A stretch of DNA of 64,000 bases, from positions 1-64,000 of the forward strand of contig CAXHZO010000013.1 in assembly GCA_964022095.1 (NCBI GenBank). The letters run 5' to 3'. This document shows positions 22,393 to 60,814 of this stretch, piece by piece. Both the position numbers and the translations under genes were made by a program. Each line of letters begins with the position of its first letter. The first letter of the stretch is position 1. The DNA comes from an uncultured Arcobacteraceae bacterium (GTDB lineage Bacteria > Campylobacterota > Campylobacteria > Campylobacterales > Arcobacteraceae). Under the pieces are notes generated by a model. It had not been told where the DNA came from and did no database searches. It worked only from the letters and a program-made list of their open reading frames with translations.

Positions 22393-23031
22393 ATGAAAAT
22401 TATTGAAGATAAGAAATACTATAAAATGTCCGAAATAGTGGACTTAACTGAACTTAGTAATCACACCATATCTTTTTATTTTAAAAAAGGTTTACTACCA
22501 AATACACTAAGTACCTCAAAAAATATGAAATACTATCCAGAGATAACAGTTACAGTTTTAAATTTAATAAAATATTTCAAAGATAATTTAAATTTTTCAA
22601 TTGATTATATAAAAGAGCTATTTGATTATTATAATATTAATTTTGAGAATAGGTCTGATTTGATTTTACAATCAATTGAGATGTTAAGCAGTGAAATAAA
22701 AAATCCAATATCAAAAAAAGATTTAGATGAAGTAAATTTAAAAGAAGCGATCAAATTAGATTTACTTGATGATAAAGATGTTTATTTTAAAACGGAAATA
22801 GAGGTTTTAAAAACATTTAAGCAGTTAAGAAAATATGATATTTCAACACAACTTATAAGTGAATATGTAAAGACAAGTAAGACTTTAGCAAAACTAGAGA
22901 GAGAACTTACAACAAAAGTTTTAGAGAAAAATGGTGTTTTACCAGAAGTTTTAGTACTTGATATATTAAATTCATTCAAACCATATATCTTCAATAAGCA
23001 TACAATTGAAGAGTTTAAAAAGGATATCTAA
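22393..23031 (+). CDS. MerR-family HTH regulator
   Basis: YKMSEI...TISFYFKKGLLP...KYY N-terminal MerR HTH and a degenerate second helical domain. Confidence 0.8.
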   Translation: MKIIEDKKYYKMSEIVDLTELSNHTISFYFKKGLLPNTLSTSKNMKYYPEITVTVLNLIKYFKDNLNFSIDYIKELFDYYNINFENRSDLILQSIEMLSSEIKNPISKKDLDEVNLKEAIKLDLLDDKDVYFKTEIEVLKTFKQLRKYDISTQLISEYVKTSKTLAKLERELTTKVLEKNGVLPEVLVLDILNSFKPYIFNKHTIEEFKKDI

Positions 23032-26527: not shown

Positions 26528-29083
26528 TTATTTATTCTCTTTATCACTTTTGTCATTTGCACAGATTAAATTAACAATATCATCTTGATTTGTGCAAAAA
26601 TTTCCATTTTTTTCAATTAGGAATAAATCTCTTGCATAACCTTTTAGAGTATGAAGTTTTGCACTTTCAATATCTACATTAAAGTCATCAAATACTCTTG
26701 CAATATAAGCAAATAGACCTTTTTGGTCTTTTGTTCTAATATGCATAGATGCTAAATATGTAGTATGGTTAGGATCTACTATCACATCACTCTTTTTTAT
26801 TATTGGAGCTTTTAATGGAACAGATTTACTCATATCAAAAGAGTCTTCAATGATTTTCTTAATATAGAAAATTTCATCATCATTTACTCTTTCTGCAAAT
26901 GTTATATAAAATGCTTTTTTATCATCAAATAACTTATAAATATCCATTGTCGCTAAATTCAGTGATTCTAGTTTTCCAAGTAAATATCCTAAATTTAGTG
27001 GAGTTTTTCTTATAATTCTAAGTGTTAGTTGTGTTTCATTTGTAATCTTATATTTGTATGTATCTGTTGTATGAGTCTTTTGGGCAAGATAGATTATATC
27101 TTCTGCTTTTAGTCTTAAAAAAATTTGATTTGAAGAGATATAATTGATTTTCTTTTTTATAATATTTGATAACTCTTTATATTTTTTTATTTTCTTAATA
27201 GTATTTATTTTTGCAACTCTTCTAGCCCCTTCATTTAATAAGTCTTCATTTTCAAATGCAGGTAATGTTTGGTTGAAAAGTTGTCTTAATAATGATGCAG
27301 TTGAACTATTAAATATATTTTTACCCACAGCAGAGATATCACAATAAGTTACTACATAAAGCATTTGCATAGCTACTTTTGTTTTTACAAGTCCTGTAAA
27401 TGTTAAAATTGTTTTCTCTGAATAAATATCTTCATGAGTTGCAATATAAGACATCATATTATGATATCTAACTAGTCTTGCTCCAATTTTTATTAATTCT
27501 TCATCAAATCCAAAGTTTTTTAGCATCTCTTTAAATAGTTTTTCACCTTCTACATGATGATCGCCTTTTCTTCCTTTTCCAATATCGTGGAAAAGTGCAA
27601 CAAGTCTAACAACTATTTGATATTCTGGTTTTAAATTATCATATACTTCTTTGATATGTTCATTTTCTATATATTTTGAAAATTTTAAAGTATTTATTGA
27701 ATGAACATCAACTGGGTGTTTATGATATCCATCAAACTGTGGTTGATGGATTATTTGCTTTGTTTGAGGAATAAGATAAGAAAATAATCCTGAATTATAT
27801 AAAAGCTTAATAACTGGATGTAAATCTGGTTTTGATAAAAGAGCTTTCATATTTTTCTTAATCTCTTTTGTAAAAGTTTTAGGTAAAATTACCCTGCTTG
27901 CAAAGTAGATGTAAGACCTATCAAATCTTTCAACAACATCTGGTAACTCTATTAACTCTTTTAACAAATTATTCAAAGTTATAGATTTTGTATTAAAAGA
28001 TGTGAATATTGTATTTCCAATAATATATTGATCTTTTTTATATCTTAGTTTTCTTAATTGAGGAATATTTTTTGATTCAAATATTGCAGCTCTAGTAAAT
28101 TTTTTAACCATTGTTGCACTAAAAGAGTGAATATTATGTAAACATGACATAAGCTTTGACATACACTGTCTCTCTTTTGTATATCTAGGAGTATTTGTAA
28201 ATCCAAGTTTAGTACTTAAATCAGGTAAGATATCAAATGTAACTTGATCTTGTTTTTTTCTTGCAACATTATGTAAAGCATTTCTTACTTGAAAGATATA
28301 TTCTAATGATTGTCTATATTTTCTAAACTCTTCTTCTGAATAGTGAATACCAATTAGTTGTTTTGTGTGATCAACACCAAATAAAACATTTGCTATCCAA
28401 TACACCATATTTGACTCTCTCATCCCTCCATATCCATCTTTAATGTTTGGCTCCATTGTTAATGGATACTTTAAAAGTCTTTGTTTATGTTCTTCAAGTT
28501 TTTCTAAAATAAACTCTTTTTGGTTTGTATTTCTAATAGTTTTTAAAGCATTTTCATATCTATACCACAGCATTTTAGAACCATAAATAAGTCTTGATTC
28601 AATAATAGAACTTTTTATAGTAATATCTTCTTTTACAGCATCTTTTATCTCTCTTACCTCATGCACTCTAGACCCAAGTTTTAATCCACAGTCCCATGCT
28701 AAAGTAATAAGCTCTTCCATCATACTTTTTAAGTTATATCCTTTGATATCCTCATATAAAATCATGATATCAATATCAGAGTAGATACAAAGTTGTTCCC
28801 TACCATAAGAACCAAGCGCAATTAAATCAATTGGAATAGAGCTACTCATTGGTTGATATGAACCAAAATGTTTTCTAAGAATATATTTATAAAGAGCTAT
28901 TAAAAATTTATCTGTATGTTTTGTGTGTTTTATAAAAAAATCTTTTCCACCAGTTGTTTCTAAAGTAGTATCAATTAATTCAACATAATTTTTATAATAT
29001 GTTTTAAAAACCTTTGCAATTTCAAAATCTTTTGCACCACTGTCAATTAATTCTTCAACTTGTATATTTAATTCTGTAATCAT
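26528..29083 (-). CDS. glnD: PII uridylyltransferase/uridylyl-removing enzyme
   Basis: ALGSYGR...SDIDI NTase, EPNIKDGYGGMRE, HD domain (LFHDIGKG), C-terminal ACT domain. Confidence 0.9.
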   Translation of the reverse strand: MITELNIQVEELIDSGAKDFEIAKVFKTYYKNYVELIDTTLETTGGKDFFIKHTKHTDKFLIALYKYILRKHFGSYQPMSSSIPIDLIALGSYGREQLCIYSDIDIMILYEDIKGYNLKSMMEELITLAWDCGLKLGSRVHEVREIKDAVKEDITIKSSIIESRLIYGSKMLWYRYENALKTIRNTNQKEFILEKLEEHKQRLLKYPLTMEPNIKDGYGGMRESNMVYWIANVLFGVDHTKQLIGIHYSEEEFRKYRQSLEYIFQVRNALHNVARKKQDQVTFDILPDLSTKLGFTNTPRYTKERQCMSKLMSCLHNIHSFSATMVKKFTRAAIFESKNIPQLRKLRYKKDQYIIGNTIFTSFNTKSITLNNLLKELIELPDVVERFDRSYIYFASRVILPKTFTKEIKKNMKALLSKPDLHPVIKLLYNSGLFSYLIPQTKQIIHQPQFDGYHKHPVDVHSINTLKFSKYIENEHIKEVYDNLKPEYQIVVRLVALFHDIGKGRKGDHHVEGEKLFKEMLKNFGFDEELIKIGARLVRYHNMMSYIATHEDIYSEKTILTFTGLVKTKVAMQMLYVVTYCDISAVGKNIFNSSTASLLRQLFNQTLPAFENEDLLNEGARRVAKINTIKKIKKYKELSNIIKKKINYISSNQIFLRLKAEDIIYLAQKTHTTDTYKYKITNETQLTLRIIRKTPLNLGYLLGKLESLNLATMDIYKLFDDKKAFYITFAERVNDDEIFYIKKIIEDSFDMSKSVPLKAPIIKKSDVIVDPNHTTYLASMHIRTKDQKGLFAYIARVFDDFNVDIESAKLHTLKGYARDLFLIEKNGNFCTNQDDIVNLICANDKSDKENK

Positions 29084-29160: not shown

Positions 29161-29913
29161 TTAAAGAGAATCTTTATGTAAATCTAGTTTTTTTCTAAGA
29201 GTAATTCTATTTAATCCTAAATGCTTTGCAATTTGTACTTGCGATTTATATTTGTCCATACATGCTTTTAATAAAGGTACTTCAAAGATATATAATAGAT
29301 CTTTATATGAATTTTCGCCTTCTAAGTTTTCACCAAAATATTTTTCTAAGAACATAAGAATTTCATGCTCTCCAATTGTTTCAAAAAGGTATGAAAAGTA
29401 TATAGACTTTCTAAGACTGTGGGCATTATTTGAGATATTTACAATTAGTTTATTTGAATTTATATATGGCATATCCAAGATAGTACTAGCCTCTTTTGAA
29501 AATTTTTCAACTAGTGCTTTTGTATCTTCACCTCTTTTTGAAAAGTTTGGAATTTCAAGATTAATCGAGAATATATCTTTTAATTTTTGATTTAAATTTT
29601 CTGTATTTGAAATGGCGATTATTCTTATATTATAATCATTTAACCATTTTAAAAATAGATCAATATTAGTAATTTCATGAACTTTATCTATTATTATAGC
29701 TTCATCTTTTAGTGTTAAAACATCATCTTCGATGTCTTTTTGCAGGTTTTTCGCTTCATAAATATCTGATTTTGGAAGTATAAATTTTGCAAGAGATTTT
29801 TTTCCTACACCCATTTCCCCTAATATTAAAGCATTTACATTTACTGCTTGTAGTAGTTTTGCTGAATTAAGTATTTCTCTTGAAATTTCATCTTGGGCTA
29901 TATATTCCTGCAT
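29161..29913 (-). CDS. Receiver-less NtrC/Fis-like regulator (truncated AAA domain + Fis HTH)
   Basis: Walker A GEMGVGK, no GAFTGA, Walker B IIIDK, C-terminal EVPLL...SQVQIAKHLGLNRITLRKKL. Confidence 0.8.
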   Translation of the reverse strand: MQEYIAQDEISREILNSAKLLQAVNVNALILGEMGVGKKSLAKFILPKSDIYEAKNLQKDIEDDVLTLKDEAIIIDKVHEITNIDLFLKWLNDYNIRIIAISNTENLNQKLKDIFSINLEIPNFSKRGEDTKALVEKFSKEASTILDMPYINSNKLIVNISNNAHSLRKSIYFSYLFETIGEHEILMFLEKYFGENLEGENSYKDLLYIFEVPLLKACMDKYKSQVQIAKHLGLNRITLRKKLDLHKDSL

Positions 29914-30005
29914 ATTTTATCACCTTATTTAAATATATTTATTATACAAAAAGCTTTTATTTAAATTTTATTATACTGTATATTATTAAAATATTTTATT
30001 TATTT

Positions 30006-30022
30006 TGTATACTTTATATACA
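30006..30022. promoter_or_regulatory. 17-bp palindrome (putative nitrogen box) upstream of regulator-glnD
   Basis: TGTATA-CTTTA-TATACA, perfect arms. Confidence 0.65.
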
Positions 30023-30080: not shown

Positions 30081-31883
30081 TTGTTAATAATGGATAATCT
30101 ATTGAAATCTAAATATTTACTATCAATAATTTGTTTTGTTTTTTTAATATTACTAACGATGATTGTACAAAAATATATTACTCAAAAAGAGAATGAAATT
30201 TCAAAAGAAAAATACTCAAATATTTCATTTCTAATTCAAGAAAAAATAGATTTATTAATTAAAAAAGAAAAAAACTCAATACTCTCATTATCTTTATCTA
30301 TTAGTAACGGTAATCAAAAAATTAAAGATGTAATATTAAAAAATGGAAGTTTAGATTTAAAAAATATTGTAAAAAAGTTAGATACTCATACTAATTTAAA
30401 ACACTTATGGTTTCAAATAATTGATAAAAATGGTAACTCTGTTTACAGAACTTGGTCTTCTAAAAGAAATGATAATCTTCTTAATGTAAGAAAAGATTTA
30501 AAAGAATTAATTAAAAAGCCAAAAATAAAATCTTCAATTAGTGTTGGAAGATATGATATTACATTTAAAGCAACTATTCCTTTATATCAAAATGGTGAAT
30601 TTATTGGTTTTTTTGAAACAATATCTCATTTTGATAATGTTGTTAGATTTATAGAATCAAGTGATGATGTGCATTCTTTAATAATAGTAGATAAAGAGCA
30701 CTCAAAGCAGTTGAGAAATAATTCATTTTCCAAAACTTTTGTACAAAATCATTACATACCAAGTTACCTATCAAATAAAGATATATTAAGTTTAGTTAGA
30801 AAAGAAAATATTAGTGATTTTATAAGTATAGACAAATATATTTTAAAGAATGAATATTTAGTAATAAACTATAAAATAAAAGATAAGAATACAAAACTTG
30901 GGAATTTCTTAGTCTTTAAAAAACTTGATTCAATTGATATGACTGATTTAGAAGATTTTAAAAGGCACGCATTTTTCTATATTTTTACTTTTATTTTATT
31001 AATACTATTAATGATATTTACGATTTTTTATTACTTCTATGCAAGAAAACTTAAAAGTGTTCATATAAAACTGAGTAGAAATAAAAGAAAATTACAAGAA
31101 TTAAATGAGAATTTACAAATTACAATAGAGCATGAAGTTAAGAAAAACGAACAAAAAAATAAGCTTCTTTTTCAACAAAATAAGATGGCTGCAATGGGTG
31201 AAATGATTGAAAATATTGCTCATCAATGGAGACAGCCACTTTCACTAATCACAACAGAAGCTTCTGCTTTAAAAGTTAAAAAAGAGTATGGGCTTTTAGA
31301 GAATAATGATATTGAAAATTCATTAGAATCTATTATTGAAACATCAAATTATTTATCTCATACAATTGATGATTTTAGAAACTATTTTTCTCCTAATAAA
31401 GAAAAAAACTTTTTTAATAGTAATAAGTTAATCCAAAAGTGTTTAAATTTGATTTCTAGAGAGTTTAATAATAGAAATATAAAAATTATTCTAGATATAG
31501 AAAATATAGAAATAAATAGTTATGAAAATGAACTTGTTCAAGTGATTATAAATATTTTAAATAATGCAAAAGATGAATTAATAAAAATTGAAGATAGAGA
31601 AAAAAGATTTATATTTATAAATTTATTTATTCAAGAAGATAGTATTTGTATAAAAATAAAAGATAGTGCAGGTGGAATAGATGAGGAAATTATTGATAGA
31701 ATATTTGAACCATATTTTACCACAAAACATAAAAGCAAAGGTACAGGAATAGGCTTGTATATGGTTGATCAAATTTTAGAAAAGCATATTAAAGGTTACG
31801 TTAAAGTAAAAAATGAGAGATACAATTATGAAAATTGTGATTATACAGGAGCTGTTTTTTCTCTAATAATTCCTAAAAATTAG
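30081..31883 (+). CDS. Orphan sensor histidine kinase with Cache-like periplasmic domain
   Basis: Two TM helices, AHQWRQPL, DSAGGI, FEPYFTTK, GTGIGL; start may be ATG 30090. Confidence 0.88.
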   Translation: MLIMDNLLKSKYLLSIICFVFLILLTMIVQKYITQKENEISKEKYSNISFLIQEKIDLLIKKEKNSILSLSLSISNGNQKIKDVILKNGSLDLKNIVKKLDTHTNLKHLWFQIIDKNGNSVYRTWSSKRNDNLLNVRKDLKELIKKPKIKSSISVGRYDITFKATIPLYQNGEFIGFFETISHFDNVVRFIESSDDVHSLIIVDKEHSKQLRNNSFSKTFVQNHYIPSYLSNKDILSLVRKENISDFISIDKYILKNEYLVINYKIKDKNTKLGNFLVFKKLDSIDMTDLEDFKRHAFFYIFTFILLILLMIFTIFYYFYARKLKSVHIKLSRNKRKLQELNENLQITIEHEVKKNEQKNKLLFQQNKMAAMGEMIENIAHQWRQPLSLITTEASALKVKKEYGLLENNDIENSLESIIETSNYLSHTIDDFRNYFSPNKEKNFFNSNKLIQKCLNLISREFNNRNIKIILDIENIEINSYENELVQVIINILNNAKDELIKIEDREKRFIFINLFIQEDSICIKIKDSAGGIDEEIIDRIFEPYFTTKHKSKGTGIGLYMVDQILEKHIKGYVKVKNERYNYENCDYTGAVFSLIIPKN

Positions 31884-31889: not shown

Positions 31890-32750
31890 TTAGTTTTTTT
31901 TCTTTGTAAAATATATAAATACTGTAAGTGATATCAAAATAACTGCAATACCTGCTATTAAATAAAAGGCATGGATCATGTGATCATAATTGTCAATGGC
32001 TATCTTAAATACGACTATAAGTGCTTCTATTGATAAGGCAATAATAATAGTAATCAAAAACTTTGTAAGCATCTTTGTTTCTACGTTTGAATTCTTTGAA
32101 TATGATTTAAAGAAAACTTCTTGTTCTAGGATTGTTTTTGCCAAATCAAATATTGCAATACCTAGGGTTAGAGCAATAATAGGTTTAAAAATCATTTCTA
32201 AACTTAAATCTATGTTTGCAAAAAGATAAGTTAAAAAGTCATAAAGAGAGAATATAATTGTAAAAAATGATAAAGCCATAAGTGTAAAACCAGCAACTAC
32301 ATAAAAACCTTTTGTAAGGCCATGAAATGATTTGTTTAATTCAAGTAAACTAAGTTTTTCTAATAAGATTTCGATTCTAAAATCTAGAAAATATATCTTA
32401 TCACCTTCTTTAACAGATACTGTTACACAACTACTTCTTGTTGCACTACTAATATATGGCTTTGAAAATGCAATATTATTTTCAGTAAAATGTAGTTTAG
32501 TAATAAGATGAGATCTGTTTTTACCATTTCCAATAGAATCATTTTTATATCTTCCAATATTATCAGAAACTTGTTGTTTTGTATTTTTATCAATTACATA
32601 TACTAATTCTAAAGAAGGAAATAGATTATAAAGGTGCTTGAAATCATTATTTTCATATAGTGATAGATCACCAAGGTTTCGAATACTTTCTTGTAAAAAG
32701 TACTCTATATCTTCTTGGTTCTGATTGTAGGTTTCTAAAAACTCTTTCAT
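31890..32750 (-). CDS. PDC/Cache-like N-terminal domain fused to 4-TM PsiE-like membrane domain
   Basis: SKPYISSAT...CVTVS Cache-like motif, then four hydrophobic helices (AIFDLAKTI, ALSIEALIVVFK). Confidence 0.6.
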   Translation of the reverse strand: MKEFLETYNQNQEDIEYFLQESIRNLGDLSLYENNDFKHLYNLFPSLELVYVIDKNTKQQVSDNIGRYKNDSIGNGKNRSHLITKLHFTENNIAFSKPYISSATRSSCVTVSVKEGDKIYFLDFRIEILLEKLSLLELNKSFHGLTKGFYVVAGFTLMALSFFTIIFSLYDFLTYLFANIDLSLEMIFKPIIALTLGIAIFDLAKTILEQEVFFKSYSKNSNVETKMLTKFLITIIIALSIEALIVVFKIAIDNYDHMIHAFYLIAGIAVILISLTVFIYFTKKKN

Positions 32751-37901: not shown

Positions 37902-40900
37902 TTAATAAACTATGTTAAGTGTTTGATCTTGAGTATCTGTAGCACCAGAGCTATCTGTAATTGTAAGTCTTATCGTTCTTGTACCACCTGGTAATCCTAC
38001 ACAAGAGTATGTCTCGCTAACTGTTGTTCCACCATCAATAAAATTATTACTATTACCTGCTGTTACATCAGTCCATGCATATGATGCAATATTTCCAGTA
38101 GATGAACTTCCAGTAAAGGTAATAAACTCAGAACCTACTCTTTGACTTGGAGAACAAAATGGTGTACCACTTTGTCCCTGAGCCGTAATAACTGCGTTTA
38201 ATGGAGTACTTGAAACAGGTCCAACTAAAAATGAATCTTGATTTGCTTGACTCATACCTGAGTTTGTAAATATATCACTTACAGTTAAACTTGCATTTTT
38301 TCTAGGATATAAAGCTGATAAATCTTGATTAAATGCACTTGCATCTTCAAACATATTATTCATATTTGTCACATTTTGAATTTGCCAAGTACTAATATCT
38401 TGATTAAATGCGGCAGATTTTAAGAACATACCTCTCATTGATGTAACATTTGATACATCCCAAGAACTGATATCTTGATTAAATGTATGTGAAGCAGGAC
38501 TACTTGCAAACATGAACTCCATATTTGTTACACTGCTTGTATCCCATCCACTTATATCTTGGTTAAACAATCTAGCTCCATTGAACATACCATACATTGA
38601 AGTTACACTACTTGTATCCCAAGAACCTATATTTTGATTAAAATTACTTGCACCACTGAACATATTATACATAGAAGTTACTGCACTCGTGTTCCAAGAA
38701 CTGATGTCTTTATTAAATGCAGATGCTCTGTAAAACATCTCTCTCATATCAGTTACACTACTTGTATCCCAAGAACCAATGTTTTGATTAAAGGCACTGT
38801 TTTGGAAAAACATAGCATACATAGTAGTTACAGAACTTGTATCCCATGAAGATATATCTTGATTAAAGCCAGTGTTTCTAAACATAACACGCATATCTTT
38901 AACATTACTTGTATTCCATGTAGAAATATCCGCATTAAACGCTCCTGCACTATTAAACATATAACTCATATTAGTCACATTACTTACATCCCATGAAGAA
39001 ATATCTGCATTAAAACTACTTGCACCATTAAACATATTAGACATCGAAGTAACATTTGATAAATCAGGAACTCCTGCACTTGAAGCAATAGTTGTTAAAT
39101 TACTTGCATTATTAAACATATTTGACATTTCTGTCCACTGATTATTACCCCAATTTACAATTTGTGTAATTTTTTTTGGATCTCCACTATTAAAAGCTAA
39201 ACCACCATATGTTCCACTTACTCTTACATCATATACTCCATCATTTGTATATGTACAAGTATAATTAGCAACACCTGTAGCTTCATTTGTTCCATCATTA
39301 TCACAATCTACATTTAAACTAACATTTGATGTTGTAGCTGTAACTCCAAAGTCATTTGTTCCATTGTTACCATTTGCTTCTGTATCAATTTTTAAGATGA
39401 AGTCATTTGATGTTGTGTTCCCACCAGTTGAAGCAGCACTTATAGTAATAGTTACAGTTTGAGAAGTTGATATAGGAGTTCCTGTTCCTCTATCTTCATA
39501 CTGTACAATTCTTAAATCATAAGTTCCAGCTGGTAATGCTGCTGGTGTATTTGTTCTTTGGTCTGCTGTTGTAAAATCAATAGTAGTTTGTGTACTTATA
39601 GGAATATTTCCTGAACTTTGATTATATATAGTTCCAAGCGAACCAGTTGGAGATAAAAACCACTCATAAGATAAAGTATCTCCATCACTATCAGTTGAAC
39701 CTGATAAATCAATAATATATGATGAAGCAGCGTTTTCAACTGCACTTGCAGATGTACCATTTGCTAAGTTCCAAACTGCAGCTTGATTTGATGAAGCAGC
39801 AGCATTAACTGTAACAATTACATCATCAGTAGAAGTAGCACCGTCATCATCAGTTACAGTTAAAGTGATATTATGAGTTCCCACAGAGAAATCAGATTTG
39901 CTAAATGATGAGTTTGTAGAAAGTACAGTAGAACCCTCAGCCCAAGAATAAGAAGAGATTGTACCATCACTATCAGATGAAGCAGAAGCATCTAAAGTTA
40001 CACTAGTACCTTGAGTTACAGTTTGATCCGCACCAGCATTAGCAACAGGAGCTAAATTAGCTGCAGCTTCAGTAGAGAAAGTAATAACCTTGTCAGTAGT
40101 ACCACCTAAATCAATGTCAGTTCCTGCATAGTTTTTAATTGTATTTTTGATAGTTAAAGTATAGTTTTCATTATTATCTAAATCGGCATTTGGAGTAATA
40201 GTTACTACATCTCCATCTCTAGTAATTATAATATCAACATTTGCACCTGTATTATCATTTGTTAGAATAAAATAATCATTTGTTAAATATCTTCTTGGTA
40301 TTTGGTCATTAAATGTAAGTTCAAAATCTACATCGATATCAACATTAGTATCCCCATTGTTAATTGTAGAAGAAGATAAACTTAATATAGTTGAAGTTGT
40401 TATTTCCCCTTGCGCTTCTAAAATATTTTCAATATGGTTTTGTGCTTGAGTTGCATCTACTATATCTTGTGAATTAAAACCTGCATTTACTAAAATAGTA
40501 TCAACAACAGTTCCATTATCTAATAAATTTGTTTCAGTATCATTTGGATCTTCAAATAAATCAAAATTAGTTTGATTTATTTCAATTGCATCAGTTGATG
40601 GGTCAGAATCTAGTGATTGTAAAAACCTACCTAATTTAATCACATCTGTATTTGTAGTATCTGTTCTAGGAACACCTATTATATCTTGTAAAAATATTTT
40701 CCCATCAACTGGAACAGCATTAACTGTTCCTAGTTTTACATCTCCTACAAAAAACTCAACACTTCCATCTGTATATGGAAATTTACCATTTGCATCAGTA
40801 TAAGAATCAGCAGAACCATTAGAGTATACTACTTTAACTCCTGATACAAAATCATCGATTAATGTTGCAGTTGAAGACGAGCCACTAGAACTACCTCCAC

Positions 40901-40958
40901 AACCAATAAGCATCCCAGCTACAACAATTGAAAAACTCATTTGTTTAAATTTGTTCAT
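37902..40958 (-). CDS. BspA-type/DUF285 repeat surface lipoprotein with Ig-like and PKD domains
   Basis: Lipobox LIGC followed by a Ser/Gly linker; [13 protein letters not shown]; ~10 [20 protein letters not shown] repeats. Confidence 0.88.
38310..39130 (-). repeat. ~75-nt (25-aa) DUF285 repeats
   Basis: Recurrent AGTTACACTACTTGTATCCCAAGAACC at ~38601 and ~38751. Confidence 0.85.
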
Positions 40959-41056: not shown

Positions 41057-41365
41057 CTAAAAATTTAAATAAACTATTCCATCCTCAATTTTTGTCTCAT
41101 AGGTTTTTGTACAGCCATAATCTTCACCTATAGATTCGCCCGTTTTTAAATCAATATCTGTGTTATGAAGTGGACAAGTAATTACATGTTCGTGAACTAG
41201 ACCTTCACTTAATTTCCCTTGTTTGTGAGGGCATAGATTATTTACTGCGAATATTTGGCCATCTCTTGTTTTAAAAATAGCTATTTCTGTATTGGCTACT
41301 TCAATTTTTCTTGAACCCATTTGAGGAATATCTTCTACTTCTGTGATTTTATACCATGTTGCCAT
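41057..41365 (-). CDS. nirD: Nitrite reductase small (Rieske) subunit
   Basis: CPHKQG...CPLH; directly downstream of nirB. Confidence 0.92.
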   Translation of the reverse strand: MATWYKITEVEDIPQMGSRKIEVANTEIAIFKTRDGQIFAVNNLCPHKQGKLSEGLVHEHVITCPLHNTDIDLKTGESIGEDYGCTKTYETKIEDGIVYLNF

Positions 41366-41368: not shown

Positions 41369-43831
41369 TTAAACTCCTTTTGCTTCAAAACTATGAGATT
41401 CTTCTGGATTTATTACGATTGGATTAAACTCTTTTGTAAACCCATCTTCTATTGCTTTTGCCCATGGGTCAACTTGTGCAGATTTTTGAGATTCATCAAA
41501 TCTTTGTGCATAGTATTTTCTTTTTTCATCATCAAACATTACTTTTTTTACATGTTCTAAACCAACTCTTTCAATCCAATGAGCAGTTCTTTCTAAATAA
41601 AATGCATCTTCTCTATAAAATTGCATATAAGCCTTTGTGTATTCAAATAACTCTTCGTCAGTTTCTACTTTACATAAAAAGTCAGTTACTCTAACTTTTA
41701 TACCACCATTACCAGCAACATGGATTTCCCATCCTGAATCAACACCAATAATTCCAAAGTCTTTGATAGTTGCTTCTGCACAGTTTCTAGGACATCCTGA
41801 TACAGCGATTTTATATTTATGTGGTGTCCATGAACCCCATGTTAGCTTTTCAATCTTAACACCCATACTCATAGAGTCCTGCGTTCCAAATCTACAGAAT
41901 GTATTTCCTACACATGTTTTTACTGTTCTTAATCCTTTTGCATAAGCTTGTCCTGATACAAATCCACAATCATTTAAATCTTTCCACATAGGAGCTAATT
42001 GTTCTTTTTTAATTCCTAACATATCAAGTCTTTGCCCACCTGTAAATTTTACAGTTGGAACATCATATTTAACAGCAATATCTGCAATATCTTTTAATTC
42101 TTGAGGAGAAGTTAACCCTCCCCAAATTCTTGGAACAACTGAGTAAGTTCCATCTTTTTGGATATTTGCAAACATTCTGTCATTTACTAAGGCACTTCTT
42201 TTATCATTTTTGTATTTGTCGTCATTGTATTTAACTAATAAATAGTAGTTAACTGCTGGTCTACATTTTGCACAACCATCTTCTGTTTTCCATGAAGCTT
42301 TTTTAAACACATCATATACAGTTTCAAAATCACCATCATCAATGATTTTTTTAACTTCTGCATGACCTTTGTTTGTACATCCACAAATTCCTTCAGGCTC
42401 ATTATTGTACTCATCACCTAAAGTATTTACTAAGATTTGTTCAACTAAGCCTAAACAAGAACCACATGAAGCTCCAGCTTTTGTACATGATTTTACATCA
42501 CCTAGTGATTTTAAGTCTTTATCTTTAATTGCATTTACAACATCTCCTTTGCAAACACCATTACATCCACAAACTTCTTCGTCATCACTCATGGCATTTA
42601 TATCATCACCACCATGTCCAGAATCTCCAGAAAGTGCAGATTTACCAAATAAGATTTTTGTTCTTAAATCACTAATATCAGTGTGCTCTTTTAATAGTTT
42701 TAAATACCAAGATGCATCAGCAGTATCACCATATAATACAACTCCTATAATTTTATTATCAAAAATCACAAGCTTTTTGTAAATACCTGCTTTTTCATCT
42801 AGTAAGATTAACTCTTCAGTTGTAACATCTCCTAAATAATCACCTGCACTAAATAAATCAACTCCAGAGATTTTAAGTCTAGTTGATAAAGTTGATCCAC
42901 TATATCCTTCAACTTCAACTCCCGCAAGCTTTTTAGCTAATACTTTTCCTTGCTCATATAAAGGAGCAACTAAGCCATAAGTATTTCCATTATGCTCAAT
43001 ACACTCACCAACGGCAAAAATTGATTCATCACTTGTAGCCATGAAATCATCAACTAAAATACCTTTTTTTGTTTCTATTTCTGCATCTATTGCAAGCTCT
43101 TTATTTGGAATAATTCCAGTTGCAAATACTACAATATTTGACTCAACACTTTTCCCATCACTAAATGTAACTGTTTGAACTTCTGTTGTTCCAGATATCT
43201 CTTTTATAGTAGTATTTAACTTAAATTCAATTCCGTATTTTTCTAAGTTTTGTTGTAAAAGTTTTCCACCAGTACTATCAAGTTGTTGTGATAAAATAGA
43301 ACCACTTCTATGAACTAAAACAGTTTTAACCCCATGCATTGCAATACCATAAGCAGCTTCAAGTCCAAGCAGACCACCACCAACTACAACTGCTGTTTTA
43401 GATTTATCAATAGTTTCTATTATGGTATCAACATCAGCTTTATTTCTAAAAGCGATCACATTATTTAAATCACTTCCAGGCGTTGTAGGAATAAAAGGTT
43501 TAGATCCAGTAGCAATTAAAAGTTTGTCATAAGATTCAATTTTCCCACTTTTTGAAGTGATTGTTTTATCTTTTTTATTAATCGATACAACCTTATCTCC
43601 TTTGTTTAGTGTGATATTATGCTCATCATACCAAGTTTGGTGATTGATAATCGTATCTTCAAATGTTTTTTCTTGTGATAATATATATGAAAGCATAATT
43701 CTATTGTAGTTTACGTAAGGTTCATCTCCATAAATAGTGATATCATACTTGTCATTTGTAATTTCTAAAAGATCCTCAATGGCTCTTAAACCACTCATTC
43801 CGTTTCCAATAACTACTAATTTCTTTTTCAC
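41369..43831 (-). CDS. nirB: NAD(P)H nitrite reductase large subunit
   Basis: GNGMSG FAD, GGGLLGLE, CGCNGV BFD domains, ANIQKDGTYSVVPR, CVGNTFC, GCPRNCAE; GTG start. Confidence 0.95.
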   Translation of the reverse strand: MKKKLVVIGNGMSGLRAIEDLLEITNDKYDITIYGDEPYVNYNRIMLSYILSQEKTFEDTIINHQTWYDEHNITLNKGDKVVSINKKDKTITSKSGKIESYDKLLIATGSKPFIPTTPGSDLNNVIAFRNKADVDTIIETIDKSKTAVVVGGGLLGLEAAYGIAMHGVKTVLVHRSGSILSQQLDSTGGKLLQQNLEKYGIEFKLNTTIKEISGTTEVQTVTFSDGKSVESNIVVFATGIIPNKELAIDAEIETKKGILVDDFMATSDESIFAVGECIEHNGNTYGLVAPLYEQGKVLAKKLAGVEVEGYSGSTLSTRLKISGVDLFSAGDYLGDVTTEELILLDEKAGIYKKLVIFDNKIIGVVLYGDTADASWYLKLLKEHTDISDLRTKILFGKSALSGDSGHGGDDINAMSDDEEVCGCNGVCKGDVVNAIKDKDLKSLGDVKSCTKAGASCGSCLGLVEQILVNTLGDEYNNEPEGICGCTNKGHAEVKKIIDDGDFETVYDVFKKASWKTEDGCAKCRPAVNYYLLVKYNDDKYKNDKRSALVNDRMFANIQKDGTYSVVPRIWGGLTSPQELKDIADIAVKYDVPTVKFTGGQRLDMLGIKKEQLAPMWKDLNDCGFVSGQAYAKGLRTVKTCVGNTFCRFGTQDSMSMGVKIEKLTWGSWTPHKYKIAVSGCPRNCAEATIKDFGIIGVDSGWEIHVAGNGGIKVRVTDFLCKVETDEELFEYTKAYMQFYREDAFYLERTAHWIERVGLEHVKKVMFDDEKRKYYAQRFDESQKSAQVDPWAKAIEDGFTKEFNPIVINPEESHSFEAKGV

Positions 43832-43895: not shown

Positions 43896-43996
43896 TGTAT
43901 ATTTTTTAATCAATAAAACTTAAATTTACATTATAAAATTAAAAATATAATATATTATTGTTTAAATAATATATTTAATACTTAAGAATACATTAA
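43896..43996 (-). promoter_or_regulatory. nirB composite regulatory region
   Basis: Palindrome TGTATATTTTTTAATCA (43896-43912); boxes rc ATAATGTAAATTTAAG (43919-43934) and rc TTAATGTATTCTTAAG (43981-43996). Confidence 0.6.
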
Positions 43997-45714
43997 AATA
44001 TAACTAAAAAGATATTGCTTATAAATAGTATAAACGATATCACTTGCCAAAATTTAACAGGATTTTTTTCTATTATTGGAACTTTATTTTTATTTAAAAA
44101 CTTTGGATTTGGTGTTTTTAAATCATAAATAAATTCTGATAATAAACTATATCTTTGATTTGGATCTACACTTAAGGCTTTTTTGATTGTTTCATTAAAC
44201 CATCTTGGAATTTTTATCTCTTTATTTATAATTGGAGAATATGTAAGTCTGTTTTGTGCTGATTTTGTTGTACTTTTTGCAACATCATTTCCGTAAGGAA
44301 ATTTTCCAGATAACATATAATAAATGATAACACCAAGGGAAAAAATATCTGATTTTACACTTCCTGTATCACCAAGAAAATATTCAGGTGCACTATATAA
44401 AGCAGTTCCTTGAATATGAAACTGTTTTGTAAAACTATCAATTTCTAAAATACCTTCAACTTTTGTAGCACCAAAATCAATTATTGTTACATGGTTGTTT
44501 TTATCTATTAAAATATTCTCAGGTCTTAAATCTTGGTGAACCATTTCATAAGTATGAAATGATTGAAGTCCATTTGCTATTTGATCAACAATATCCCTAA
44601 CCTCTTGTAAAGTAGGACTTGGATTATCTTTTATCCACTGTGCTAAAGTTTGCCCCTCAATAAAATTTGTAACTACATATAAATAGTTTTTTTCTCTATT
44701 TTGTTCATATGCTTTTAGTACATGCTTATTGTTTAATCTCTTTGCAATCCAATCTTCCATTAATAGTCGTTCTAAATAGGCATTGTCTTCTTTGAATTCA
44801 TATGATGGAATTTTTATTACAACTTTATCTTGAGTTTGTAAATCAATGGCTAAATAAACATGACTTCTACTGTTGTAATTAAGTGTCTTTAAAATCTTAA
44901 AACCATCAAATTCATCTTGCTCTTTTAAATCTTGATGAACTGGTTTTTCGTAGATTTCACTTTGTACTTCATTTACTTGTTTTTTGGGTAAATTATCAAT
45001 TTTAACAATTTGTAGTGTTAGATTATCATCACTTTTATTTTCAATTGCAGTATTTACTAACTTTTTTGCTAAATCATTTAAATCACCTTTATAAGAAGAG
45101 ACTTCCTTTATGAATGTTTCATTATTTATAAATTCATAAACACCATCTGTCATAAGCAAAAATAGGTCATCTTTTTCAAGAGGTGTTGATTCATAATCAG
45201 TATTTAAAACTGAATCAATTCCTAAAGCACGTGCAAGATAGCTTTTATCTTTTGATACCCAAGTTCTATGATCAGTTGTTAATTGTGTTAATTCATTATT
45301 TCTTATTTTATAAACTCTAATATCCCCCACATGAAGAATATGTGCAGTGTTTGATTTTAAAATCAAACTTGTAAAAGTACATACAAACCCACTATCTTTT
45401 TCAAGGTGGTATTGATTTTCTTTATTCTTTGAATATAGCCAAGAATTTGTTGCGTTTATTACTTTTGTTGCAGCATTTTTTACACTCCAAGCTTCACTTG
45501 TACAGTAATAATCTTCTAAAAATGTTTGAATACTAACTCGACTAGCTTCTTGACTTACATCACTACTACTTATACCATCAGCGATACAAATTGAAATACC
45601 TTTTGTTATAAGTTGTGGTTCTTTTGGAATTTTTATTTCATGGTAGTCTTGGTTGATTTTTTTAACACCTTTAGAAGTGTATTGACCATAAGAGATTTGA
45701 AGATTGTTTTGCAT
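43993..45714 (-). CDS. Bifunctional PP2C phosphatase-Ser/Thr kinase, C-terminal TM (copy 1)
   Basis: IADG, HVGDIR, TDG, DDNLT; VIK, HQDLRPEN, DFG, YSAPE. Confidence 0.9.
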   Translation of the reverse strand: MQNNLQISYGQYTSKGVKKINQDYHEIKIPKEPQLITKGISICIADGISSSDVSQEASRVSIQTFLEDYYCTSEAWSVKNAATKVINATNSWLYSKNKENQYHLEKDSGFVCTFTSLILKSNTAHILHVGDIRVYKIRNNELTQLTTDHRTWVSKDKSYLARALGIDSVLNTDYESTPLEKDDLFLLMTDGVYEFINNETFIKEVSSYKGDLNDLAKKLVNTAIENKSDDNLTLQIVKIDNLPKKQVNEVQSEIYEKPVHQDLKEQDEFDGFKILKTLNYNSRSHVYLAIDLQTQDKVVIKIPSYEFKEDNAYLERLLMEDWIAKRLNNKHVLKAYEQNREKNYLYVVTNFIEGQTLAQWIKDNPSPTLQEVRDIVDQIANGLQSFHTYEMVHQDLRPENILIDKNNHVTIIDFGATKVEGILEIDSFTKQFHIQGTALYSAPEYFLGDTGSVKSDIFSLGVIIYYMLSGKFPYGNDVAKSTTKSAQNRLTYSPIINKEIKIPRWFNETIKKALSVDPNQRYSLLSEFIYDLKTPNPKFLNKNKVPIIEKNPVKFWQVISFILFISNIFLVIF

Positions 45715-45765: not shown

Positions 45766-46206
45766 TTACCAAGATTTATAAGGTAAGAATTTTCCATTCA
45801 TAGTAATAACTACTCTATCACCAGCTGGATTTTCTTCTTTATCAATATCCATTGAGAAATCAATTGCACTCATAATTCCATCACCAAATTTTTCACCAAT
45901 AAGTTCTTTAATCGTATCTCCATAAACACCAATTACTTCATAGAACCTGTAAACAACTGGATCAGTTGGAATATCTTTTTCCCAAGTTTTGTATGGGAAT
46001 TCTATTAATGTTTTTTCAACATCTTTAGAAAGCTTTAAAACTTCGCATAGTTTCTTTGCATATTTTTTCTTCAAACTGTTTTGACCTAAACAAGCAGAAG
46101 TTAAAAATACACTTCCTAAACCAACCTTTGAAGATATCTCTTCCCAAGATAAACCTAAACTTTTTTTAGCAACTATAATCTCTTCTGTCATTTCAATTTT
46201 TGTCAT
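45766..46206 (-). CDS. cynS: Cyanate hydratase (cyanase)
   Basis: PTDPVVYRFYE, FGDGIMSAIDF, GKFLPY. Confidence 0.97.
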   Translation of the reverse strand: MTKIEMTEEIIVAKKSLGLSWEEISSKVGLGSVFLTSACLGQNSLKKKYAKKLCEVLKLSKDVEKTLIEFPYKTWEKDIPTDPVVYRFYEVIGVYGDTIKELIGEKFGDGIMSAIDFSMDIDKEENPAGDRVVITMNGKFLPYKSW

Positions 46207-46309: not shown

Positions 46310-47158
46310 TTAAGCAGCTTCTTTTGAACTTGAAGAAGGTGTAGTTAATTCTCTTTTTGCACCAGTTTTATAGTGCGTGTAGTAAATCATTAATCCAACA
46401 AATAATAAACCACCAACTAAGTTACCTAATGCAACTGGTAATTCATTCCATAATAAGTAATCAGCAATTGTAAAATCACCACCCATAATTAGTGAGAATG
46501 GAAATAAGAACATATTAACAATTGAGTGCTCAAATCCCATAAAGAAGAACAGCATAACAGGCATCCACATAGCTAGCCATTTCCCTGAAACTGAAGTTGA
46601 AATCATAGCTCCAACAACACCCATAGAAACCATCCAGTTACATAACATACCTCTAATAAATACAGTAATCCATCCAGCAACTCCATATTCAGAATAACCT
46701 ACAGTTCTAGACTCTCCAATAGTTGCAACTTTTTGTGCAATAGCTCCACCATCAGTATTAAACCCCATAGTAAATATAAAGGCAATCATACAAGCAACCG
46801 TAAATGCACCACCAAAGTTACCCAGTGCTACTAATCCCCAGTTTCTTAAAATTTGACCTATTGTTACACCTGGTCTTTTATCAAGCCATGCTAGTGGCAC
46901 TAGTGTAAATACTCCAGTCAAAAGGTCAAACTTCATGAAATATAACATGATGAATCCCACAGGGAATAAACAAGCTCCTAAGATTGGAGAACCAGATTTC
47001 ATTGCAACAGTAATTGCAAATACAGCAGCTAGACCTAAAATAGCACCAGCCATATACGCTCTAATTAACGTATCTTTAGTTGACATGAAGACTTTCTCTT
47101 CACCAGCATCTACCATTTTCGTAGCGAATTCAGATGGATTTATATATGACATACTCAA
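46310..47158 (-). CDS. Formate/nitrite transporter (FNT) family channel, likely nitrite/cyanate
   Basis: FPVG, DLLTG, GNFGG, GMLCNWMV, FEHSIVNM, GNLVGG. Confidence 0.92.
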   Translation of the reverse strand: MSMSYINPSEFATKMVDAGEEKVFMSTKDTLIRAYMAGAILGLAAVFAITVAMKSGSPILGACLFPVGFIMLYFMKFDLLTGVFTLVPLAWLDKRPGVTIGQILRNWGLVALGNFGGAFTVACMIAFIFTMGFNTDGGAIAQKVATIGESRTVGYSEYGVAGWITVFIRGMLCNWMVSMGVVGAMISTSVSGKWLAMWMPVMLFFFMGFEHSIVNMFLFPFSLIMGGDFTIADYLLWNELPVALGNLVGGLLFVGLMIYYTHYKTGAKRELTTPSSSSKEAA

Positions 47159-47219: not shown

Positions 47220-47293
47220 GAGGAAAAATAGAGGAAAAGTAAAAAATACTGTATAAAAAGTATACAAACGCCTAGAATAGTTTGTTGTATAAT
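47220..47293. promoter_or_regulatory. Divergent FNT/sensor promoter region
   Basis: GAGGAAAA repeats at 47220 and 47231; palindrome TGTATAAAAAGTATACA at 47250-47266; TATAAT at 47288. Confidence 0.65.
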
Positions 47294-47314
47294 AAAAATA
47301 AAAAAGGAAATAAA

Positions 47315-48841
47315 ATAAAAAAATCTTTAATTTATCTTTTTGTATTCTTTTCATTATCACTTTTCTCTTTAATTGGATATACCATTAAAAGTTCATATCA
47401 AGTGCAAGAAGAACTACTAGAAGAGAGTCTAAAAAATAAAGCTCTTGCGATATTTAATCTTATAGTTGATATGAGGCACTGGAATGCCCAATATGAAGGT
47501 GTATATGTAAAATCAGACAAATTAGAACCAAATCCATATTTAAAACCTGGCTTTATAAAATCAGAACATGGGGAGAAACTAGTTTGGGTAAATCCTGCTT
47601 TTATGACAAGACAAATCTCAAATATTGCTAGCAAAAGAGATGGTTTTAAATTAAAAATTACAAGTAATAAACTTATAAATAAAAACAATGCTCCAGATGA
47701 GTTTGAAGCAGAAATTTTAAATTACTTTGATAAAAATCCTCAAATTCCTTATTATTGGGAAATTAAAGAGAATAATTTCAAGTTTATGGGAGCCCTTAAA
47801 ACAGAAAAAGCTTGTTTAGCTTGTCATGCTCATCAAGGTTATAAAGTAGGAGATATTAGAGGTGGTGTTTCTGTATCTTTTGATGTTGAACAAGAGTTTG
47901 AAAAACTTGAAGTAATAAATAAAGACAAAGAGCAAAGTTTATTTTTCTTAATCACAGCAGCAATTGGTGCAATTTTAACACTACTTATTCATCAAAATAT
48001 AAAAAGAGTAGATGAAGATAAAATTTCTGAACTTAATGAATCTTTAGAAGCAAAGGTTCAAGAGTTAGATGAGTTTAATAAAACACTTCATAAAAAAGTT
48101 GAAGTTGAATTAGTAAAACAAAGAGAAAAAGAAAATCTCTTAATCCAACAATCAAAATTAGCAGCTTTAGGAGAGATGATTGGAAACATTGCCCATCAAT
48201 GGAGGCAACCAATTAGTGCTGTAAGTGCTATTATGATGAATATTAAATGGACTGCTATTTCTCAAGGTGCTGATAAAAAATTTATGGATGAAACTATGAA
48301 AGAGGCAAATGAACAGTTACAATATATGTCTCAAACAATTGATGATTTTAGGAATTTTTTTAAACCAAACAAAGAAAAAGAGATGTTTGATATAAAAAAA
48401 GAGGTTAGAAAAGCATATAAAATTATGAGAGCAACTTTAGAAAACTATGAGATAAATACTCAAATACATAATAGAGTTGAAATAGATGTATATGGTTATG
48501 CAAATGAGTTTTCGCAAGTAATTTTAAATATCATCTCAAATGCAAAAGATGTTCTAATTCAAAAAAATATTCAAAATCCACGAATTGATATATTTTTATC
48601 AAAGGATGATGCCTTTGCTTATTGTGAAATTCTTGATAATGGTGGAGGAATACCTTTTGAGTGTATTCAAAAAATATTTGAGCCATATTTTACTACAAAA
48701 GAATCATCAGGAACGGGAATTGGATTGTATATTTCAAAAGAGATTATTGTAAAACATATGCAAGGTACACTTGAAGTTGAAAATACAAAAGATGGGGCAA
48801 AGTTTATAGTTGCAATACCTTTATATAAAGATGAGGTTTAA
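47315..48841 (+). CDS. Heme-c (DUF3365/Tll0287-like) sensor histidine kinase
   Basis: NPAFMTRQ, CLACH CxxCH motif, GDIRGG, AHQWRQP, GTGIGL; probable start at ATA 47315 (track start 47282). Confidence 0.85.
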   Translation: MKKSLIYLFVFFSLSLFSLIGYTIKSSYQVQEELLEESLKNKALAIFNLIVDMRHWNAQYEGVYVKSDKLEPNPYLKPGFIKSEHGEKLVWVNPAFMTRQISNIASKRDGFKLKITSNKLINKNNAPDEFEAEILNYFDKNPQIPYYWEIKENNFKFMGALKTEKACLACHAHQGYKVGDIRGGVSVSFDVEQEFEKLEVINKDKEQSLFFLITAAIGAILTLLIHQNIKRVDEDKISELNESLEAKVQELDEFNKTLHKKVEVELVKQREKENLLIQQSKLAALGEMIGNIAHQWRQPISAVSAIMMNIKWTAISQGADKKFMDETMKEANEQLQYMSQTIDDFRNFFKPNKEKEMFDIKKEVRKAYKIMRATLENYEINTQIHNRVEIDVYGYANEFSQVILNIISNAKDVLIQKNIQNPRIDIFLSKDDAFAYCEILDNGGGIPFECIQKIFEPYFTTKESSGTGIGLYISKEIIVKHMQGTLEVENTKDGAKFIVAIPLYKDEV

Positions 48842-48842
48842 T

Positions 48843-55262: not shown

Positions 55263-55351
55263 TTAATGTAAAATTAATTTTTATTGATTATAAAGTATAC
55301 AATTTTATAAATATAAGATAGTACTAGTATGTTATTTTATGTAAAGTTAAG
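55263..55351. promoter_or_regulatory. nirA composite regulatory region
   Basis: TTAATGTAAAATTAAT (55263), TGATTATAAAGTATACA (55285), TTTATGTAAAGTTAAG (55336). Confidence 0.6.
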
Positions 55352-57395: not shown

Positions 57396-57435
57396 TTAAT
57401 GTAAAGTTAAGATAAGGTTGTTTATTAAATAAACA
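57396..57435. promoter_or_regulatory. narB composite regulatory region
   Basis: TTAATGTAAAGTTAAG (57396-57411) then TGTTTATTAAATAAACA (57419-57435). Confidence 0.65.
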
Positions 57436-60490: not shown

Positions 60491-60814
60491 TGTATAAAAA
60501 ATAAGCAATTTATAAATATTACTATTATATTTAATGTAATATTAAGTCTTAAATTGAATAATTTGAAAGTATATGACTAATAAATCAAATTATTAATGTA
60601 AATATAAGTTTTACTGTTTATTAAAGATACAATGTGTATATAATATATATAACTCTATTAGTTAAAGTATATACAATGTTTAATTCTTTATCTTTAAAAT
60701 ATTAATGTTTATTTAAGCTAAAAATAATGTTATGTATATTGTTAATTGCTTTATTGTTTTTTATAATATAGCTATTAATGTAATATTAAGTTTAAAATGT
60801 ATAAAAAGTAAACA
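60491..60814. promoter_or_regulatory. Divergent narK/nrtA control region with multiple conserved boxes
   Basis: Direct-repeat boxes at 60531, 60593, 60702, 60775; palindromes at 60491, 60615, 60798. Confidence 0.65.

Follow-up and report, generated by a model that had tools for sequence, protein, structure and literature searches.

How does a bacterium that has neither sigma-54 nor an NtrB-NtrC pair control its nitrogen genes? The question is raised by a stretch of 64,000 nucleotides (nt) from an uncultured Arcobacteraceae bacterium (contig CAXHZO010000013.1 of assembly GCA_964022095.1), referred to here as the window. In it, a gene for a 250-amino-acid (aa) protein resembling NtrC (29161..29913, minus strand) lies beside glnD, and a 17-bp dyad recurs in front of genes for nitrate, nitrite and cyanate assimilation. 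An earlier interpretation of the window, made from the letters alone (the sequence-only reading), had proposed that this protein is an autoregulated nitrogen master regulator, independent of sigma-54 and of phosphorylation and perhaps under the direct control of PII or 2-oxoglutarate. Arcobacteraceae are abundant in marine, sediment and wastewater nitrogen cycling and, to our knowledge, little is known of nitrogen sensing and control in Campylobacterota; full-text searches of the literature outside subscription journals yielded no description of this regulator, of the dyad or of nitrogen regulation in Arcobacter or Campylobacterota. In view of the results below, we consider that the 250-aa protein (the regulator) probably acts as global nitrogen activator in this Arcobacter-like organism and in most of its family, and we assign the dyad, here termed the N box, to it.

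The N box and its nitrogen regulon

The N box was searched for as TGWWTA-N5-TAWACA, a 17-bp pattern with 6-5-6 geometry. The exact pattern yields 11 strand matches in the window, representing 7 distinct sites, compared to 0.57 expected, and none of 100 shuffled sequences reached 11. With one mismatch there are 31 matches compared to 16.1 expected, and with two mismatches 203 compared to 197, which is at the level of noise, so that allowing two mismatches adds nothing. Among the sites of the sequence-only reading, those at 43896, 47250, 55285, 57419 and 60798 are exact and those at 60491 and 60615 have one mismatch; all of its coordinates proved correct. The seventh exact site, at 28128 inside glnD, is probably a chance occurrence.

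The genome that contains the window (here G000, with the window in contig C13) comprises 2,565,272 bases in 31 contigs, has 28% G+C and is 99.99% complete. It contains 19 distinct exact sites, 16 of which are located in the 164,459 bases (6.4% of the genome) that are intergenic by open reading frame (ORF) calls. In dinucleotide-preserving shuffles of the intergenic DNA only, 0.85 ± 0.90 sites were found, with a maximum of 5 in 300 shuffles. This comparison had been set as a test beforehand, and it indicates that the motif is not a by-product of AT-rich spacers.

Nitrogen genes follow 11 of the 16 intergenic exact sites. Pfam searches confirmed the gene names in the window, namely glnD, nirBD, FNT, cynS, nirA, narB, a narK-like MFS transporter and nrtABC-like genes. 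The box of the regulator-glnD unit, TGTATACTTTATATACA (30006-30022), is located 93 nt ahead of the regulator start codon and 30 nt ahead of a minus-strand TATAAT (29970..29975), by eye the putative −10 hexamer of the regulator promoter; the same layout is seen in the genomes G001, G024, G003 and G007. Further exact boxes precede nirBD (box 43896..43912, 31 nt to an extended −10; nirB 41369-43831 and nirD 41057-41365, minus strand), nirA (box 55285..55301, 31 nt to TGaTAAAAT; gene 53623-55227, minus strand), narB (box 57419..57435, 31 nt to TATAAT; gene 55353-57341, minus strand) and the nrtA-like ABC transporter genes (box 60798..60814, 32 nt to TAGAAT; genes 60884-63988, plus strand). The box at 47250..47266 is located between FNT-cynS (46310-47158 and 45766-46206, minus strand) and a divergent gene pair (47282-49514, plus strand) encoding a histidine kinase with a Tll0287-like (PF11845) sensor domain and an OmpR-type response regulator; this shared box is merely 16 nt ahead of the kinase start codon at 47282. 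The narK-like MFS gene (59142-60422, minus strand) is preceded by a one-mismatch box (60491..60507, 31 nt to TATAAT).

Beyond the window, exact sites precede glnA, amtB, a urea-type (urtA-like) binding-protein gene, ureD, an NMT1-type binding-protein gene associated with a guanidine riboswitch, and an Opr-family porin gene, which is also boxed in the genome G002. The boxed amtB belongs to an amtB-glnK-amtB-glnK cluster just beyond the window end. The first amtB of this cluster carries a one-mismatch site with the same spacing as at narK, and so does a cobA-like methylase gene; sirohaem synthesis, to which the latter belongs, is needed by nitrite reductase. Four of the 16 intergenic sites have no evident link to nitrogen: they lie close to a dCache-CheW gene, to panB and a HAD gene and to a thioesterase gene, and between two convergent genes. 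The expectation that a genome-wide scan would return glnA, amtB-glnK and urea genes was borne out in G000, whereas gltB, also expected, has no box with up to one mismatch in this genome; gltB and nifA are boxed in a related genus. Overall, the conclusion that the dyad defines a nitrogen regulon is well supported.

Two features of the boxed operons deserve mention in their own right. A guanidine-I riboswitch (RF00442, 90 bits; locus L005 3003-3099, corresponding to approximately 223502-223598 of contig C3 of G000) is located between the exact N box and the NMT1-type gene, and this operon seems to need both nitrogen limitation and guanidine. The nitrate/nitrite cluster also encodes two fused PP2C phosphatase/Ser-Thr kinase proteins (43993-45714, 573 aa, and 57437-59065, 542 aa, both on the minus strand), each located immediately upstream of a boxed reductase gene (nirB and narB, respectively). 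They may be post-translational regulators of assimilation.

The position of the box relative to the promoter is nearly constant. Distances were counted by eye on printed sequences and the −10 hexamers are putative. The end of the box is 31 nt from the hexamer at glnA, amtB, nirB, nirA, ureD, narB, the guanidine transporter and the dCache-CheW gene, and most of these hexamers carry a TGn extension; the regulator has a distance of 30 nt, nrtA and the porin gene one of 32 nt. No −35 element could be recognised by eye at these 11 promoters. In many genera the glnA box is found about 84 nt ahead of the start codon, and in 11 of 19 genomes with a boxed glnA exactly 31 nt separate it from a TGnTAnnnT, most of the others having a plain hexamer at 31–32 nt. 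Assuming a transcription start 7 nt past the hexamer, the centre of the box would be near −52, and the resemblance of this layout to that of activator-dependent sigma-70 promoters is well supported by the spacing.

In G000 (99.99% complete) the sigma-54 DNA-binding domain (PF04552) was not found, and a control search did find it in 4 control genomes. No genuine enhancer-binding protein was detected either, the matches to PF00158 in the genome being weak ones in longer AAA+ proteins plus the regulator itself, and the genome has no NtrB-NtrC pair. Since sigma-54 is missing from the genome and the regulator has no receiver domain (see below), any action of the regulator would be independent of sigma-54 and of phosphorylation, in agreement with what had been proposed.

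The candidate regulator and its locus

The regulator consists of a degenerate NtrC-type AAA+ domain, with a Walker A motif at residues 32-39, followed by a Fis-type helix-turn-helix (HTH) at residues 210-244; the receiver, the L1 loop and the Walker B motif are gone. The sequence-only reading had described the protein in these terms, and searches of Pfam and NCBIfam together with an alignment bear the description out. Residues 210-244 match HTH_8 (PF02954; E 6.5e-5, 23 bits against a cut-off of 22). The match to Sigma54_activat (PF00158; E 3.5e-4, 20.7 bits against a cut-off of 20.2) is confined to residues 6-53 and spans the first 48 of 168 model positions, Walker A included. Among the NCBIfam models, Fis (1.1e-7) and ntrC (3.2e-6) match residues 189-246 only, both far below their cut-offs; the score for TIGR01818 (NtrC) is 26 bits compared to a cut-off of 558. 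There is no Pfam match to Response_reg in the regulator, whose N-terminus extends merely 31 residues ahead of Walker A.

An alignment of 29 orthologues (A1) shows which parts of the protein are maintained. In the Walker A motif, GxxGxGK(K/S), G32 and G37 are invariant and K38 is present in at least 90% of the sequences. The Walker B column is variable, reading IIIDK in the window protein and DK, EH, ED, SN, KH, YN and others across the alignment, and the GAFTGA motif is absent throughout. The PPLxxRxED(I) stretch typical of enhancer-binding proteins is conserved, and HTH residues N235, R236, T238, L239 and K242 are invariant. In total there are 13 invariant columns, residues of Walker A and the HTH among them. 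Searched as a profile, A1 matches the ATPase domain of NtrC1 with E 1.3e-13 in two pieces (query residues 2-47 and 94-177), and the gap between the pieces is about 40 residues shorter than in NtrC1, at the place where the L1/GAFTGA region lies. Among PDB entries, the profile further matches Fis and a protein resembling it. The AlphaFold model derived from A1 has a predicted local distance difference test (pLDDT) score of 90.6, and its best structural matches are Brucella NtrX (5m7p and 5m7n, at the top), Aquifex NtrC1, PspF and RuvB.

The family is compact. It forms 93 clusters at 50% identity (E ≤ 1e-30), all of 220-271 aa or fragments, and longer enhancer-binding proteins enter the search only from about E 1e-19. 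Among the 80 loci listed by one peptide-pattern scan, full-length members occur in Campylobacterota only. Public annotations of such proteins in Arcobacter read ‘sigma 54-interacting’ or ‘Fis family transcriptional regulator’; the first of these names misleads where, as here, the genome lacks sigma-54.

Directly downstream of the regulator gene, on the same strand and 77 nt away, is glnD, which encodes the PII uridylyltransferase (26528..29083, minus strand). Synteny with glnD, which had been suggested as a check across Campylobacterota, is found in 15 of 19 Arcobacteraceae loci but in none of 11 loci in other families of the order. A PII gene is located within 3.5 kb of the regulator in 17 of 33 regulator-bearing genomes, including some from other families (G030, G031, G035, G036 and G040). 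In G002 a second glnK-amtB pair is transcribed divergently from the regulator gene, and the DNA separating the two contains a one-mismatch box. Residue Y51, the target of GlnD in Escherichia coli PII, is invariant in 30 PII orthologues.

The N box at the promoter of the regulator itself, which had been put forward as a sign of autoregulation, is present in the window and recurs widely: 18 of 21 loci, which represent at least 17 genera, have it ahead of the regulator unit with up to one mismatch. This count includes boxes within about 110 nt of the regulator or 65-150 nt before a co-directional gene for a membrane protein of about 286 aa, and one locus (L033) is doubtful as its box is just 19 nt from the start codon. 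In the window, the 286-aa membrane protein is encoded at 31890..32750 (minus strand) and has four predicted membrane helices, a PDC/Cache-like N-terminal domain (a language-model lead only) and no output domain. In 8 related loci its gene is directly ahead of the regulator with the box ahead of both; in the window, the gene of a dCache_3 histidine kinase (30081..31883, plus strand) intervenes. This kinase gene is divergent from the regulator. Between the box and the kinase start codon are 59 nt, and the box ends 11 nt ahead of a TATAAT, which is at odds with the activator layout. Proteins of this type, about 286 aa long, are also encoded at L013, L014, L018-L020, L022-L024, L154, L155 and L239, and are co-operonic with the regulator in several genera as well as in G036, which belongs to another family. 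The membrane protein may have a sensory function or serve to anchor the regulator.

Co-occurrence across genomes and competing explanations

We infer that the regulator binds the N box from their co-occurrence, the autoregulation and the gene context, and we likewise infer activation rather than repression and the nature of the signal. Of the 184 genomes of the family, 156 have the regulator, and its reading frame is open in each of them. The 156 genomes contain 855 perfect TGTATA-N5-TATACA boxes compared to 192 matches to the reversed pattern, which served as the control, whereas the 28 genomes without the regulator contain 23 boxes compared to 22 controls. The contrast is also present within a single genus, g11. 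All 27 of its genomes with the regulator have at least two boxes (146 in total, 11 controls), and all 17 without it have at most one (3 in total, 7 controls), most of the latter assemblies being reported as 99-100% complete. At least one of these regulator-less genomes, the box-less G011, keeps glnA, PII and glnD. The glnD match in G011 (L114, contig C1 1773264-1775702) contains one in-frame TAA, and this gene may be decaying.

Outside the family, the perfect TGTATA box is not clearly enriched (12 matches compared to 6 controls in 14 regulator-bearing genomes of other families). A variant, TGATTA-N5-TAATCA, occurs in those families ahead of amtB (G028, G033, G038 and two Sulfurovum metagenome-assembled genomes), nirA (G029) and glnA (G031), as well as ahead of the regulator (L170) and of a glnK-amtB-PDC-regulator operon (G036). 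The recognition helix reads mostly NRNT in other families and NRIT in Arcobacteraceae. A strict one-residue recognition code (NR-I-T with TGTATA, NR-N-T with TGATTA) was rejected, G036 combining NRVT with TGATTA and G002 combining NRVT with TGTATA or TGTACA; the covariation of recognition helix and box is kept at the level of clades only. In G031 the regulator homologue (L245, contig C35 8600-9350) is split over two frames, residues 3-204 being followed by the HTH in another frame, which is a frameshift or a sequencing error.

A second palindrome near glnA (TGGTTA-N5-TAACCA or TGATTA-N5-TAATCA) was not counted as a box, being formed by the 3′ end and stop codon of a PHP-domain gene, and it makes the glnA matches in G033 and G028 ambiguous. 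It is present ahead of glnA in G002, G004, G013, G018, G022, G023, G028 and G033 (L045, L046, L054, L055, L057, L061, L068 and L073), where, with a short intergenic spacer, it occupies the position that the N box has in other genomes. Its right half is non-coding and nevertheless conserved, which is suggestive of a hairpin or of a site bound by a protein.

Several observations weigh against assigning the box to the regulator. The strongest come from G023 (99% complete, 60 contigs), which has no match to the profile of the regulator family; the position that the regulator occupies in the congener G002 is taken by another gene. In G023, nifA, gltB, modE and a NifA-like gene are nevertheless each preceded by a perfect box, and amtB by one with a single mismatch. 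Around two of these boxes, those of gltB and of the NifA-like gene, the intergenic DNA has diverged while the box itself is conserved; the gltB box also keeps the 31-nt spacing. The conservation of these boxes in a genome where the regulator was not found suggests that something binds the box there: either another protein reads it, or the regulator was lost recently, or the assembly lacks its gene. The regulator gene does match G023 DNA over 36 bases, within a MutS2-like gene, and this is a chance similarity. In two less complete genomes, G005 (91%) and G021 (93%), glnA is likewise boxed and the regulator was not found. As G005 lacks PII as well and G021 lacks glnD, and as congeners of both carry the regulator, gaps in the assemblies are a plausible explanation for these two. 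Conversely, the regulator-bearing genomes G002, G013 and G022 have no glnA box. The co-occurrence has limits of its own: any factor lost together with the regulator would give the same pattern, the contrast in g11 may reflect a single loss event, and the relatedness of the genomes inflates all counts. Finally, homologues linked to slyD in Sulfurimonas-like genomes (14 of 24 loci) have neither a nitrogen gene nor a box within 5 kb, and the role of the family may therefore differ between lineages. The homologue begins within or right after the Cys/His-rich tail of slyD in genomes resembling those of Sulfurimonas, Sulfuricurvum, Sulfurospirillum and Hydrogenimonas (L028-L031, L034, L037, L156-L168 and L174), and this arrangement suggests translational coupling.

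The alternative that survives best, although we consider it unlikely, is that the palindrome is a true nitrogen operator bound by a different factor, with the 250-aa protein being a member of the regulon, a secondary regulator or a co-factor. The conserved and correctly spaced boxes of G023, along with the glnA boxes of G005 and G021, are what this alternative would predict, and autoregulation, gene context and co-occurrence prove only that the regulator gene belongs to the nitrogen system. Against it stands the exact coincidence in g11, where boxes vanish in the very genomes that lack the regulator (17 of 17 with at most one box compared to 27 of 27 with at least two). In other families the box shifts to a variant, and the promoter or operon of the regulator carries the local variant. 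The conserved HTH of the regulator is also of a type whose relatives bind 17-bp dyads. Moreover, every rival regulator that was tested is also present in box-less genomes, although the screen covered only a few families out of the whole repertoire.

The candidates of that screen were the following. A 212-aa MerR protein (22393-23031), which shares an operon with an acyltransferase gene, was rejected as the box binder by its distribution. A MerR protein of 126-137 aa, probably HspR, occurs also in the box-less G011; ModE is absent from G000 and present in G011; and two Crp-family proteins have likely orthologues, judged by similar size and match only, in the box-less G011 and G045. A 297-aa protein with a receiver and an HTH_8-like domain, presumably of the HP1021/CemR kind, occurs in 183 of the 184 genomes. 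A NifA-like GAF-AAA-HTH protein of G002 and G023 was considered as a close paralogue of the regulator and rejected, its similarity being that of enhancer-binding proteins in general and its HTH being unlike. The genus of these two genomes, g2, has nif genes and two NifA-like proteins, both with boxed genes (G023 L089 895-2253 and L110 217-1767; G002 L093 and L095). One is 452 aa long with GAFTDA and no HTH; the other, of 516 aa and encoded beside moeA, has a degenerate Walker A, no GAFTGA and a strong HTH_8.

It is a good deal less probable that the regulator binds the box as a repressor, or as a dual regulator, that is released under nitrogen limitation. The positions of the box at the two divergent kinase genes, 11 nt before the TATAAT of the gene at 30081 and close to the start codon of the gene at 47282, are indeed of the repression type. 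The prevailing layout is that of activator-dependent promoters: the box has a fixed distance of 30–32 nt to an extended −10 that lacks a −35 element, without overlap with the polymerase site, and this applies to 11 promoters of G000 and to glnA in 11 of the 19 genomes where it is boxed. The remaining alternative, that the gene once encoded an enhancer-binding protein and has been decaying since the loss of sigma-54, with no regulatory role and with box and neighbours coincidental, draws on the lost Walker B, GAFTGA and arginine-finger regions and the marginal Pfam scores, and is hardly credible for a protein of uniform size (220-271 aa over 93 clusters) with 13 invariant columns, a confidently predicted fold (pLDDT 90.6), an open frame in 156 of 184 family genomes and a conserved context with glnD, PII and amtB.

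Possible signals and comparison with known systems

These results lead us to propose the following scenario for the regulator as nitrogen activator. The protein would descend from an NtrC-type enhancer-binding protein that lost its receiver, the GAFTGA (L1) loop, Walker B and the arginine-finger residues, and retained the AAA+ fold, Walker A and the Fis-type HTH. A dimer would bind the palindrome TGTATA-N5-TATACA about 31 nt before an extended −10, centred near −52 at promoters without a −35 element, and the bound regulator would recruit or activate the sigma-70 RNA polymerase. Its targets would be the glnA, amtB-glnK, urea, guanidine, nitrate, nitrite and cyanate genes, the porin gene and its own operon with glnD, the last being subject to positive autoregulation.

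Because the regulator has no cis-regulatory domain, its activity would have to be set in trans or via the pseudo-ATPase domain. The gene context points to the GlnD/PII system as the most likely input. Other candidate inputs are the co-operonic PDC-type membrane sensor and the binding of a nucleotide or of 2-oxoglutarate to the dead ATPase domain. It is possible, if on balance somewhat doubtful, that a pseudo-ATPase remnant has become the master sigma-70 nitrogen activator in those Campylobacterota that lost sigma-54 and is switched in trans by an unprecedented route. This could involve docking of (uridylylated) PII on the dead AAA+ domain, or its sequestration at the co-operonic PDC-type membrane sensor, comparable to the capture of GlnK by AmtB.

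The closest comparison is with NtrC (enteric NR-I), with which the regulator shares AAA+ ancestry, as indicated by the match to NtrC1, the PPLxxRxEDI stretch and a C-terminal Fis-type HTH. The systems also have in common a 17-bp dyad of 6-5-6 geometry (TGCACC-N5-GGTGCA for NtrC), a regulon of glnA, amtB-glnK, nitrate and urea genes, autoregulation and a link to GlnD/PII. Unlike NtrC, the regulator lacks a receiver, GAFTGA and the acidic pair of Walker B, and its stretch from Walker A to sensor I is shortened by about 40 residues; its genome lacks sigma-54, its site is fixed near −52 instead of being a remote enhancer, and no NtrB partner is seen. PspF likewise consists of AAA+ and HTH only, has no cis-regulatory domain and is set in trans by a partner protein, but it is an active ATPase with GAFTGA and depends on sigma-54, whereas the regulator has neither feature.

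In terms of promoter layout, the regulator resembles NtcA of cyanobacteria and TnrA/GlnR of Bacillus, which are sigma-70-type nitrogen activators with a palindrome at a fixed distance before the −10 and a poor −35. Control of these activators is exerted in trans, either through PII-PipX and 2-oxoglutarate or through glutamine synthetase and GlnK. As proteins they are unrelated to the regulator, being members of the CRP/FNR and MerR families; the NtcA dyad has a spacing one base shorter, and the TnrA dyad is also 17 bp long with another half-site.

Loss of GAFTGA is known from other members of the NtrC family, among which we would count TyrR, presumably acting at sigma-70 promoters. A recent preprint names NtrC of Rhodobacter capsulatus and of Caulobacter, NtrX, and VpsR of Vibrio as regulators of this kind acting with sigma-70, and reports that several such regulators still require phosphorylation or ATP (bioRxiv 10.1101/2023.06.06.543975). 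Like them, the 250-aa regulator has the L1 loop deleted and AAA+ and HTH kept, and it is presumed to act with sigma-70. In contrast, they retain a sensory N-terminus (receiver, or ACT/PAS) together with a full-size AAA+ domain, 440-520 aa in all, whereas the 250-aa regulator has no sensory domain and a Walker B that is not conserved.

The regulator is probably the long-missing nitrogen switch of its bacterial group. If so, one small protein and one 17-bp box would account for how most Arcobacteraceae control the assimilation of ammonium, urea, guanidine, cyanate, nitrate and nitrite, and nitrogen fixation (nifA) would be under the same control in a related genus. It would also mean that an ATP-driven activator of sigma-54 can be reduced to a sigma-70 activator after sigma-54 is lost, and would provide a clean system for studying how PII/GlnD signals reach a regulator without a sensory domain. 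Should the in-trans route through PII be correct, it would represent an independent wiring of PII/GlnD to transcription beside NtrB-NtrC, PipX-NtcA, GlnK-TnrA and GlnK-AmtR.

Elsewhere in the window, positions 1-6822 (plus strand) are occupied by a very large ORF of more than 2273 aa that is open at the window start and contains a VWA domain, and positions 37902-40958 (minus strand) encode a 1018-aa protein with DUF285, PKD and Big_5 repeats. Both are likely surface proteins.

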